Source: Chloroflexota bacterium
GTDB taxonomy: Bacteria; Chloroflexota; Chloroflexia; QHBQ01; JADMIH01
Direction: 5' to 3'
DNA: 64,000 nt
Assembly (NCBI GenBank): GCA_039932335.1
Contig: JBDTQH010000014.1
Location: 45,118 to 109,117, forward strand
In this document: positions 44,225 to 46,212 of the stretch, in pieces
How the letters are laid out: the number at the start of each line of letters is the position of its first letter
Position numbering within the stretch: the stretch's first letter is position 1
Made by a program: the position numbers and the translations under genes
The notes under the pieces: generated by a model
Told to the model about the DNA's origin: nothing
Databases searched by the model: none
What the model saw: the letters and a program-made list of their open reading frames with translations, nothing else

Positions 44225-44380
44225 TCGTCCAATTTGGCCCTATTTTCGATATTTTTTTCAATTCCGGTTAACATCTGGAAAAATGATATGTAAGATTCTA
44301 GCAGGGAGGAAAGAAAGAGGTCTTATTACAAGCCTCTGAGCAGGGCTCAAAATTCGTGCTTGGGCCGTAAGCAAACGCAA
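44225..44380 (+). ncRNA. promoter-plus-leader repeat element E1 (candidate sRNA or 5' leader)
   Basis: -35 TTAACA (44268), 17-bp spacer, -10 TAAGAT (44291). The downstream conserved segment has a hairpin AGAGG-N12-CCTCT. About 72% identical to E2 over about 155 nt. Confidence 0.3.
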
Positions 44381-44675
44381 AACCGGATAGAAACCATTCG
44401 GATCTGGCAATAATAAGCGTTCCGGCAGCATGGTGAGCCGGTGGTGATAGCCACGACGAGTCGTAAACATCGTCTGCAATCTACCGGCTCGTGACAGGAT
44501 CGTGACAGATAGACCTTATCATGAATAGGAAAGGAGCAATAAGCGTCTGCAAAACACATATGCAGACCGGTGCGGCACCCGGAGCGGCCGCACATTGAGG
44601 GGGGATGTAGCGCAGGTAGGATTATACCGCCGCCTATATCCGCTATATAACCTATATAAAGGAGCAAGGATACGT

Positions 44676-45560
44676 ATGGTAGATAATAGCAACACTGGAG
44701 CGATTGAGCTCAACGAATATCTGGAGATCCCAGAGGACCTGACGCCGTCAGGGGACGACGTATTCACCGCATGCGCCCAGCACGCGAGCCTGGGCGACTA
44801 TCTGACATCGATACTCCGGAAACGGCTGTTCGAAATTATGTCTCACTCTCAGGGATGGATCCCCAACCCTGAGAGTGAGACAGTTGAGCAGTTGCTTGAG
44901 ATTACCGAGCAGGGCAAAACCCTCATCGTACCTGCTAACATGTGCGCTGACCTGGAGTTGGCCGCTCGCCACCTGGACCGCTCCATTATGGAATGGCCCC
45001 TCGAGACTCTGGCGCTGCCTGCTGCCAGGGGGTTCTGCTCGTTCGCAACGCCTATCCGTATACCAGGGCGCGGCGGCAACGGGACTTACGAGTTGACCGC
45101 CTTGACCTGGAGCCGGGGTTATTACACGGACCTCAGCAACCCTGCTACTTGGCTCGCCACAAATGGTGCGCTCCACATTACCGGGCTCGTGAAAACGCCA
45201 GCCTGGACATATGGTGAGCCGGAGATTCGGATCGACTGGATACTCGGGGTCTCCTGTGCGGAGAATATGAGGCTGTTTGGCTCACTGAATGGCTGTGACT
45301 ATTCTGAGGACAAAAGTGCAACCGGCGCTCTACTGCGTATATTTGCGTCTCTGTTTCAGACGGCAGAGCCGCGGGCATGGACGAACATACACTTTGATAT
45401 ACCAGAGGAGATGTGGTCCGACGCTGATACCTGCATCGGCGCTGAGTTTGGGTCAGAGTCGCCCGAGGTGTTACTGGCGTTGAGGCAGCACTTTCGCTTC
45501 CTGGCCGAGCGGTTTGTGGAGTTTTACGCGTTTGTTCCATCGGCATGCGTAAGCGATTAG
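44676..45560 (+). CDS. hypothetical protein (294 aa)
   Basis: Internal start MVDNSNT with an AAAGGAG RBS; no recognisable domain. Confidence 0.45.
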   Translation: MVDNSNTGAIELNEYLEIPEDLTPSGDDVFTACAQHASLGDYLTSILRKRLFEIMSHSQGWIPNPESETVEQLLEITEQGKTLIVPANMCADLELAARHLDRSIMEWPLETLALPAARGFCSFATPIRIPGRGGNGTYELTALTWSRGYYTDLSNPATWLATNGALHITGLVKTPAWTYGEPEIRIDWILGVSCAENMRLFGSLNGCDYSEDKSATGALLRIFASLFQTAEPRAWTNIHFDIPEEMWSDADTCIGAEFGSESPEVLLALRQHFRFLAERFVEFYAFVPSACVSD

Positions 45561-45603
45561 CTTTGTTGATGCCATGGAGCGGTGTACGCTCATAAACCTT
45601 ATC

Positions 45604-45639
45604 GTAGTGCCCGGTCGCTGAATAGTAGCCGGGCACTAC
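45604..45639 (+). terminator. 11-bp stem hairpin (GTAGTGCCCGG/CCGGGCACTAC) after 44676-45560
   Basis: Perfect stem with a 14-nt loop; no T-tract. Confidence 0.35.
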
Positions 45640-46050
45640 GCTCCTAACCCGGACACTCCGGTCAGCACCCTGTTCGTGACCTCACGTGTAACAAGCTCAA
45701 GTCTAAATAAGATATATCGACCTGGTAAGCGTTATGAGACGGTCTCAACCTGCAGCGGTTGAGGGGCCGCGTGCGGCCCCAGCCACATGGCCTACTTTCA
45801 GAATCGCGTAAGTGCCGATACCAACTTTCCAGCGTACAGGTGTACAAGGTGCAGAGGGCGCAAAAGGCACTAGGCACTCAGGCAACTCGGGCTGCTGGGC
45901 TATTGGGCGGCCATATCACCGCTCAGGTCTCTGCTCGAAAGCTGGAGTGACATAGCAACAAACTGGTCTGTGCATATTACCCGGTTAGCATTTACTAGTC
46001 TGCCGATTATTTATTCAACCCTTCTTTGTTCTGCCCGAACATCGCTCAAA

Positions 46051-46212
46051 TTCCGCAAATTTGGCTCTATCTTCTATATTTTTCCAATTCTGGTTTATAT
46101 AAGCGACAAATTATATGTAAGATTCTAATAAGGAGCGAGATAAGAGGTTTAATACAAGCCTCTGCACAAAGGGTAAGGGCATAAATTTCAGGCATGGGCC
46201 ACCAGCAAACAG
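46051..46212 (+). ncRNA. promoter-plus-leader repeat element E2 (paralog of E1)
   Basis: -10 TAAGAT at 46118. Conserved TATGTAAGATTCTA...AAGAGGTYTWATACAAGCCTCTG...GGGCC-N3-AGCAAAC; precedes the tiny ORF 46272-46343. Confidence 0.3.

Follow-up and report, generated by a model that had tools for sequence, protein, structure and literature searches.

Genomic context of the repeat

The window analyzed here is a 64-kb stretch of contig JBDTQH010000014.1 from an uncultured Chloroflexota bacterium (metagenome-assembled genome, assembly GCA_039932335.1). Our subject is a non-coding element, E, that occurs in it as two copies, E1 and E2 (Table 1), located in an island of about 5 kb of lineage-specific genes, with a tyrosinase/VWA gene (minus strand) on one side and a Cys/Met-metabolism gene on the other. 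The copies enclose a gene for a protein of 294 amino acids (aa). Downstream of E2 are a putative 23-codon open reading frame (ORF), a 92-aa ORF that is the first coding-like gene after E2, and a gene for a 197-aa protein. The original prediction, made from the sequence of the window, placed the two copies on either side of an ORFan and upstream of the 23-codon ORF. The positions are as described, but the 294-aa gene is not a strict ORFan, as it has five distant homologues.

When scored against the codon usage of 15 Pfam-supported genes of the window, the 294-aa, 92-aa and 197-aa ORFs and the ORF that follows them are coding-like (the 92-aa ORF scores 0.102 vs. -0.079 for the best other frame). 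The ORFs in 43060-44170 and 45640-46000 are not, so that both copies have long non-coding regions on their left. Both E1 and E2 are intergenic, and are upstream of and co-oriented with coding-like ORFs. The distance from the TAAGAT hexamer in each copy to the start codon is about 385 nucleotides (nt) for E1 and the 294-aa gene, and about 363 nt for E2 and the 92-aa ORF. Searches of Pfam, PHROGs and PADLOC gave no match for the 294-aa, 23-aa, 92-aa, 197-aa and 192-aa ORFs. No paralogue of the 294-aa gene was identified downstream of E2 (tblastn), and thus only a non-coding module was duplicated. Genes of mobile-element type occur elsewhere in the window (Replic_Relax, DNA methylase, DDE transposase, and a tyrosine integrase at 56639-57757). 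The nearest recombinase gene is 10 kb from the E copies, and none is located between or adjoining them.

Table 1. Positions of the E copies, of the features in and around them, and of GTGACA-type sites. Coordinates are those of the window unless a contig (L004, L005 or L006, which carry relatives of the 294-aa gene) is named.
Feature	Position	Strand	Basis or remark
E1, repeat copy 1	44171-44376 (core 44228-44376)	+	MAFFT, blastn, nhmmer; 41.7% GC
E2, repeat copy 2	46004-46210 (core 46056-46210)	+	MAFFT, blastn, nhmmer; 38.2% GC
T/A-rich tract directly before the E1 candidate promoter	44245-44266		Read from sequence
E1 candidate sigma-70-type promoter, TTAACA-17-TAAGAT	44268-44296	+	Promoter scan, 9/12
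E2 candidate promoter, TTTATA-18-TAAGAT	46094-46123	+	Read from sequence, 8/12
E1 hairpin/inverted repeat, AAGAGGT...GCCTCTG	44315-44338	+	Starts 20 nt after the -10
E2 hairpin/inverted repeat, AAGAGGT...GCCTCTG	46142-46164	+	Folding, consensus fold
Proximal promoter of the 294-aa gene, GTGACA-N5-GTGACA-N9-TATCAT (outside E)	44490-44522	+	Conserved in L005 and L006
Leader hairpin of the 294-aa family, GTCTGCA-N9-TGCAGAC (outside E)	44545-44567	+	Conserved; leader hairpins of L006 ~4886-4925, L005 ~709-727
294-aa gene between the copies (ABI670_09025)	44676-45560	+	Codon-usage score 0.195; six-member family
23-codon putative ORF downstream of E2	46272-46343	+	ORF list
92-aa ORF	46481-46759	+	Codon usage; called as a gene in Logan contigs
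197-aa gene	46951-47544	+	Coding-like by codon usage
GTGACA site, perfect	3031-3047	-	Motif scan
GTGACA site	13086-13103	+	Upstream of Replic_Relax gene; TATAAT at 13114
GTGACA site	16557-16574	-	Upstream of 177-aa gene, then methylase gene
GTGACA triple repeat	43405-43439	-	Upstream of tyrosinase gene
GTGACA site	44490-44507	+	Upstream of 294-aa gene
GTGACA site	46815-46832	+	Upstream of 197-aa gene
GTGACA sites outside the window	L004 1084-1101; L005 ~541-558, 656-673; L006 4826-4843		

E1 and E2 are diverged copies of one non-coding sequence

E1 and E2 are genuine diverged copies of one non-coding sequence. They are in direct orientation, about 1.8 kb apart (start-to-start spacing 1827 nt), and each is about 205 nt long. 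Identity is 73.7% (146 of 198 aligned positions), and 78.1% (114/146) in the core that runs from CCAATTTGG onward. Sensitive blastn (word size 7) aligns the copies with expectation values of 2.7e-20 to 8e-23. The similarity of the two segments proposed originally (44225-44380 and 46051-46212, about 72% identical) thus reflects homology, but the repeat is longer than the ~155 nt suggested. It begins about 50 nt further left, at CGATTATTT (44171/46004), and extends to AGCAAAC (44376/46210). The flanks have no significant similarity on either side. The GC content of both copies (Table 1) is low compared to the 55.1% of the window as a whole. The motifs described for the element, the hairpin arms AAGAGG...CCTCTG and GGGCC-N3-AGCAAAC, are present in both copies; the arms are invariant, and enclose a loop that is one nucleotide shorter in E2 (11 nt) than in E1 (12 nt). 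An exact motif search identified ATATGTAAGATTCTA exactly twice in the window.

Stop codons are present in all six frames of E1 and E2, the insertions and deletions are frame-breaking, and mismatches are distributed 10/12/10 by codon position, with no three-base periodicity. A coding function is rejected on this basis, in agreement with the predicted lack of an ORF within E.

Only E1 and E2 were recovered from the window using nhmmer (--max), blastn (word size 7), and exact and three-mismatch motif searches; a three-mismatch match to the E motif at 3093 is at chance level. We scanned a gapped pattern of 23 specified bases against 185,579 representative genomes, a collection that does not include the source genome, and against JGI metagenomes. 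One match was found in each, and both are attributed to chance (no likeness outside the pattern). A looser pattern had no matches in viral contigs. Neither E1 (blastn) nor the 2.3-kb region (megablast) matched phage and plasmid records, and contigs L004-L007, which carry homologues of the 294-aa gene, have no E-like sequence. Thus, instead of the family that had been envisaged, these collections and the window yielded two copies, and E belongs to no described RNA or repeat family. Two Logan contigs, L001 and L009 (SRR26386574 and SRR26386572), cover 43018-46807 and 46095-47367 without a single difference from the window (100% identity), and therefore provide no informative natural variants of E. 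For the left edge of the window, a look-up yielded nothing but one short contig.

At 44090-44138 (ACAAGTCTCTGCACAAGTAAGGCC...TAGCAAATCGG) there may be a third copy, degenerate and partial, that corresponds to the 3' half of E. It keeps the ACAAG-to-AGCAAA spacing of E1, and its alignment score, just ~2.6 standard deviations above shuffles, is not significant. Also not significant is a possible match between 44509-44565 and 46238-46300.

Two similar elements of about 200 nt around a single gene, in a window with DDE transposase and integrase genes, could be the ends of an insertion sequence (IS) or composite transposon, or copies of a miniature inverted-repeat transposable element (MITE). As in these elements, the repeats are non-coding, A+T-rich and intergenic. 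However, the copies are direct rather than inverted and lack terminal inverted repeats: end-versus-end scores are 5 and 8, compared to shuffle means of 6.3 and 6.7, and the left end of E1 against the inverted right end of E2 scores 8, compared to a shuffle mean of 10. No target-site duplication was seen, there are just two nearby copies in the 64 kb and no phage or plasmid match, and the enclosed 294-aa gene matches no transposase model, its best fold match being an anti-CRISPR protein. An origin as IS or MITE ends is therefore scarcely credible.

Two other classes of paired repeat were considered and excluded, based on the mismatch pattern and the lack of a recombinase or reverse transcriptase. 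In the case of attL/attR sites, the similarity extends over ~200 nt with 52 mismatches and is not confined to a core, and no recombinase gene is found between or next to the copies. In the case of the template and variable repeats of diversity-generating retroelements, the mismatches are not confined to adenine (A in E1 at 10 and A in E2 at 17 of the mismatched positions, with every substitution type present), the copies are non-coding, and no reverse transcriptase domain was identified among the neighbours scanned.

The 294-aa gene family has its own promoter

A full HMMER scan of 1.84 billion representative proteins identified five relatives of the 294-aa protein (31-40% identity), giving a six-member family. 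Neither the 294-aa nor the 197-aa protein had a homologue in a word-index protein search, and a profile search added nothing beyond the five relatives. The contigs of the relatives that were compared with the window are L004-L007. One of these, L007 (GCA_030155905.1), encodes two family members in tandem (530-1588 and 1607-2236), the first of which is far more diverged (23% identity to the window protein).

An upstream element that is distinct from E is common to the window, L005 and L006. It consists of CGTGACAGGAYSGTGACR, 9 nt, TATSAT, a purine-rich stretch, and the hairpin GTCTGCA-N9-TGCAGAC. In the window it occupies 44490-44567, beginning 114 nt after E1 ends. The leader hairpin of L005 reads GTCTGTA...TACAGAC, and so differs by one compensatory pair (C-G to U-A). 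A second leader hairpin follows in the same place (44570-44593 in the window, and also in L006), with a sequence that differs by locus. In all three family promoters the -10 is followed by the purine-rich stretch and by a 7-bp hairpin that starts 22-30 nt after the -10. Since the 294-aa gene has this proximal promoter, E1 is not needed for its expression. E had also been proposed to be a regulated leader. A role as leader of the 294-aa gene is not sustained, given that the conserved promoter and leader of the family are at 44490-44567 and are common to L005 and L006, which lack E.

The proximal promoter is one instance of a promoter-like motif in which two or three GTGACA-like hexamers recur with an 11-12-nt period. 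At least six genes of the window are preceded by this motif (Table 1). Four window matches to the 18-mer were found at three or fewer mismatches, vs. 0.04 expected, and contigs from two other samples also carry it. At sites with a clear -10 (TATAAT, TATCAT, TATGAT or TACAAT), the last repeat ends 9-10 nt before the -10. The pho boxes of PhoB/OmpR-type regulators and the heptamer repeats of Streptomyces antibiotic regulatory proteins (SARPs) define activator-dependent promoters in which direct repeats at an 11-bp period replace the -35. The GTGACA motif resembles these in its direct 6-7-mers, its 11-12-nt period, and the 9-10 nt between the last repeat and a -10-like hexamer. By this analogy, the GTGACA-type promoters, but not E, have PhoB/OmpR- or SARP-dependent promoters as their closest known relative. 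No description of a GTGACA-N5-GTGACA-N9/10-TAnnAT motif was found in the literature searched.

Scans of the window for the GTGACA motif did not pick up E1 or E2. At the canonical positions, E2 has GGTTTA (2/6) and GCGACA (5/6), the latter exactly 9 nt upstream of TAAGAT, as in PhoB/OmpR- and SARP-type promoters, whereas E1 has CGGTTA (2/6) and TGGAAA (3/6). E1 matches at just 3/6, and the first repeat is poor in both copies, which places E outside the GTGACA promoter class. Further, because both the 294-aa and the 197-aa gene have a promoter of that class in a proximal position, E is something additional. The divergent intergenic region of about 1.5 kb that includes E1 (43206-44675) has no coding-like ORF. 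It also holds two outward-facing GTGACA-type promoters and ~730 nt of unexplained sequence of ordinary GC content.

Weak evidence for RNA structure in E

No Rfam match was obtained at the gathering score for the whole window. With an expectation value of up to 10, the only match in 43900-46600 was a chance-level tmRNA fragment (44118-44182, minus strand) that only just reaches the left edge of E1. The folding energies of the putative transcribed parts are at the level of shuffled sequences (z of +0.59 and -0.24 on the plus strand, and +0.11 and +1.31 on the minus strand). RNAalifold predicted 13 pairs for E1 and E2, which form a single hairpin (AAGAGGU...GCCUCUG) and a single weak helix. No pair shows a compensatory change, although two sequences provide almost no power for this comparison. 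The hairpin lacks covariation because its arms are identical in both copies. No terminator-like site was identified on the plus strand in 43400-47200, a weak negative given that the organism may use terminators without T-runs. The longer putative 5' untranslated regions (UTRs) also fold unremarkably (z of -2.2 and -0.9), and their standout stems are outside the repeat. For example, a 10-bp stem at 44433-44491, which closes just before the promoter of the 294-aa gene, is not matched by a similar stem after E2.

Overall, the evidence for a selected RNA structure in E is weak, given the lack of an Rfam match, shuffle-level folding, and the lack of covariation and of a terminator. The functional non-coding RNA of the original prediction is not supported by these results. 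That prediction had emphasized conservation of both the promoter and the RNA parts. This is expected of any duplicate with 74% identity, and thus is not itself evidence of selection.

Each copy could nevertheless include a stand-alone small RNA (sRNA) gene, on either strand. One candidate would be an E1 RNA of ~190 nt, from about 44303 to the stem at 44433-44491, and another a minus-strand RNA that starts from TAGAAT. The promoter of the 294-aa gene separates E1 from that gene, so that an E1 transcript is not required as its leader. The position of the 10-bp stem just before this promoter and the long non-coding regions to the left of both copies also fit an sRNA. However, the stem is not part of the repeat, neither strand folds better than shuffled sequence, and the results for Rfam, compensatory changes and intrinsic terminators on the plus strand are all negative. 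We consider sRNA genes improbable. In a broader proposal, E would be the founding pair of a new family of cis-acting RNA leaders or sRNAs, restricted to mobile elements in a lineage of uncultured Chloroflexota. Such RNAs would control anti-defence-like gene cassettes, with the AAGAGGU...GCCUCUG stem-loop as the functional core. We give this proposal only a very small chance.

A proposed duplicated distal promoter module

The layout of E is promoter-like: a T/A-rich, UP-like tract is followed by a weak -35 that differs between E1 and E2 and by TAAGAT, a -10 with TG before it, after which come a purine-rich start region and a short stem-loop. The parts of tandem or paralogous sigma-70 promoters are ordered in this way, from an A/T-rich tract through the -35 and -10 to a small hairpin near the predicted 5' end. 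E is also like these in its co-orientation with downstream genes, and in that another promoter of the same gene follows E1. It differs in that the -35 is weak and unconserved, the scores are at chance level, and the hairpin is short (5-8 bp) and lacks covariation. Of the systems compared, a paralogous bacterial promoter with a stem-loop at its 5' end is the one that E most resembles.

We give a probability of about 45% to the interpretation that E1 and E2 are a locally duplicated distal promoter module with a 5' stem-loop, within the island of lineage-specific genes. According to this interpretation, one intergenic promoter module would have been duplicated locally in the ~5-kb island, and the copies would then have diverged. 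RNA polymerase with the housekeeping sigma factor would initiate at about 44303 in E1 and about 46130 in E2, and transcription would read rightward. Given that no plus strand terminator was found after either copy, the transcripts would run into the downstream genes. E1 would be a distal promoter in tandem with the proximal GTGACA-type promoter of the 294-aa gene, whereas E2 would drive the 23-codon ORF and the 92-aa gene. The stem-loop AAGAGGU...GCCUCUG may act in the mRNA, by stabilising its 5' end, or in duplex DNA, by binding a repressor. A 5'-terminal stabilising stem-loop is exemplified by the hairpin in the 5' UTR of ompA in E. coli. The duplication, its lack of coding capacity, and its A+T richness, position, orientation and motif layout are observed directly, whereas promoter activity, direction and the role of the hairpin are inferred.

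The promoter interpretation is favoured because the copies are A+T-rich, intergenic and co-oriented, because the 9/12 match in E1 follows a T/A-rich tract, and because identity along the copies is patchy. The order of -10, purine-rich stretch and hairpin also matches that of the 294-aa family promoters, and there is a precedent in the same window. This precedent is a second direct repeat of ~205 nt (8130-8334 and 10691-10895; 90.7% identical, ungapped, 2561 nt apart). It covers the 5' UTR and the signal-peptide-like N-terminus (MIVALGL...LLLSGIMLSRASASFAAR) of adjacent, co-oriented and otherwise unrelated genes. Thus, local copying of 5' modules happens in this genome. In the second copy of this repeat a 364-aa ORF begins at 10742; in the first, 8181-8360 is a 59-aa ORF located 33 nt upstream of a 757-aa ORF in a different frame.

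Several observations weigh against a promoter. A sigma70-like promoter had been predicted in each copy, but only that of E1 was recovered by the promoter scan. The E2 candidate is below the threshold of the scan and was not flagged. Further, the region has three promoter-like matches, compared to 3.4 expected from shuffles. In reverse complement, a conserved block of E provides TAGAAT, which is as good a -10 on the minus strand and is accompanied by a poor -35, so the direction of an E promoter is not settled. The 294-aa gene has its own conserved promoter downstream of E1. In addition, the blocks of identity between two copies at 74% are compatible with neutral decay. A promoter on the plus strand remains the most economical reading of E.

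The main rival to the promoter interpretation is that E is a functionless relic. A single event, either a local duplication or a modular recombination in a region resembling a mobile element, would have doubled an A+T-rich intergenic sequence of ~205 nt. The two copies would now be drifting apart, with their motifs incidental. Consistent with this are the restriction of E to two copies near each other, with no relative in the collections searched, and the longest identical run (15 bases), which is expected by chance at such identity (permutation test, P 0.16-0.26). The lack of covariation and of excess fold stability, the chance-level number of promoter-like matches, and the use of a different promoter by the neighbouring 294-aa family are also consistent with a relic. 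However, the distribution of identity within the repeat is patchier than random (permutation test, P 0.0008 for the whole repeat and 0.02 for the core). Further, the repeat has sharp ends and flanks without similarity, and both copies have the same orientation upstream of genes, at similar distances. On balance, we regard a functionless duplication as unlikely, but as a serious competitor.

It is also conceivable that E is a protein-binding DNA element without promoter function, in which a regulator, a silencing protein or a recombinase would recognise AGAGG-N11/12-CCTCT and the direct repeats CAATTYYGG. The invariant inverted-repeat arms would fit this, as would the recurrence in both copies of CAATTTGG and CAATTCCGG (CAATTCTGG in E2), 27-28 nt apart, and the A+T-rich setting with its mobile-element flavour. 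However, no DNA-binding protein was recognised among the neighbours (Pfam, PHROGs, PADLOC), the nearest recombinase gene is distant, and two copies are too few to define a site. This explanation seems decidedly improbable. A related comparison is with anti-CRISPR (acr) promoters, which have inverted-repeat operators bound by anti-CRISPR-associated (Aca) repressors. E is similar in that a strong-looking predicted promoter has an inverted repeat near the start site and is upstream of small lineage-specific genes, and the best fold match of the adjacent 294-aa protein, at fold level only and from a medium-confidence model, is the anti-CRISPR protein AcrVA2. It differs in that no helix-turn-helix (Aca-like) gene was recognised nearby using the same three databases, and E1 is not the proximal promoter of the 294-aa gene.

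Predicted fold of the 294-aa protein

An AlphaFold2 model of the 294-aa protein, based on the six-sequence alignment, has a mean predicted local distance difference test (pLDDT) score of 59.5. Averaged over blocks of 10 residues, the score is mostly 68-85 in the core (residues 81-240) and drops to 46-50 at residues 150-162 and 203-207. AcrVA2, the best fold match of this model, is reported to trigger translation-dependent loss of Cas12a mRNA (bioRxiv 10.1101/2022.11.29.518452). AcrVA2 was not retrieved by a profile search of PDB sequences with the 294-aa protein. A Foldseek search against viral models returned weak matches to uncharacterised phage proteins of 320-400 residues (expectation values 8e-5 to 2e-3, template modelling scores of ~0.3). 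In L006, the homologue is ~3.3 kb from a gene for a large serine recombinase. The model and this context suggest a mobile-element role, possibly in anti-defence, for the 294-aa protein, which we consider a lead and not a result. Within the coding sequence of the 294-aa gene, 44839-44882 is a 20-bp inverted repeat (95% complementary, 4-nt loop) that is unusually long for an intragenic hairpin.

Other features of the window

Near-perfect intergenic palindromes of 24-42 nt are present at 12762-12794, 14507-14548, 22700-22730, 37153-37192 and 48179-48202, and are probably terminators without T-runs. A hairpin after the 294-aa gene (~45607-45641) likewise lacks a T-run. The tyrosinase/VWA gene is seemingly split by a frameshift into 42948-43286 and 40372-43059, both on the minus strand. 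The ORF that begins with the ATG at 43205, called as a gene in a Logan contig, is off-frame relative to the 895-aa ORF that starts at 43059, and the Pfam tyrosinase match starts at profile position 28. We also identified a 51-nt inverted repeat (48613-48663 and 51686-51736, 80% identical) around genes for a Cys/Met-metabolism enzyme dependent on pyridoxal phosphate (PLP) and a nitronate monooxygenase.

Implications for transcription in Chloroflexota

E itself is an ordinary finding. If E1 and E2 are active promoters, they would indicate that members of a poorly known phylum wire lineage-specific, probably mobile-element-derived genes by copying 5' modules, which would be a small and local result. 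More interesting than E are the GTGACA motif and the rare 294-aa family, with its hairpin leader and AcrVA2-like predicted fold. These may provide leads on the control of transcription in Chloroflexota and on anti-defence.

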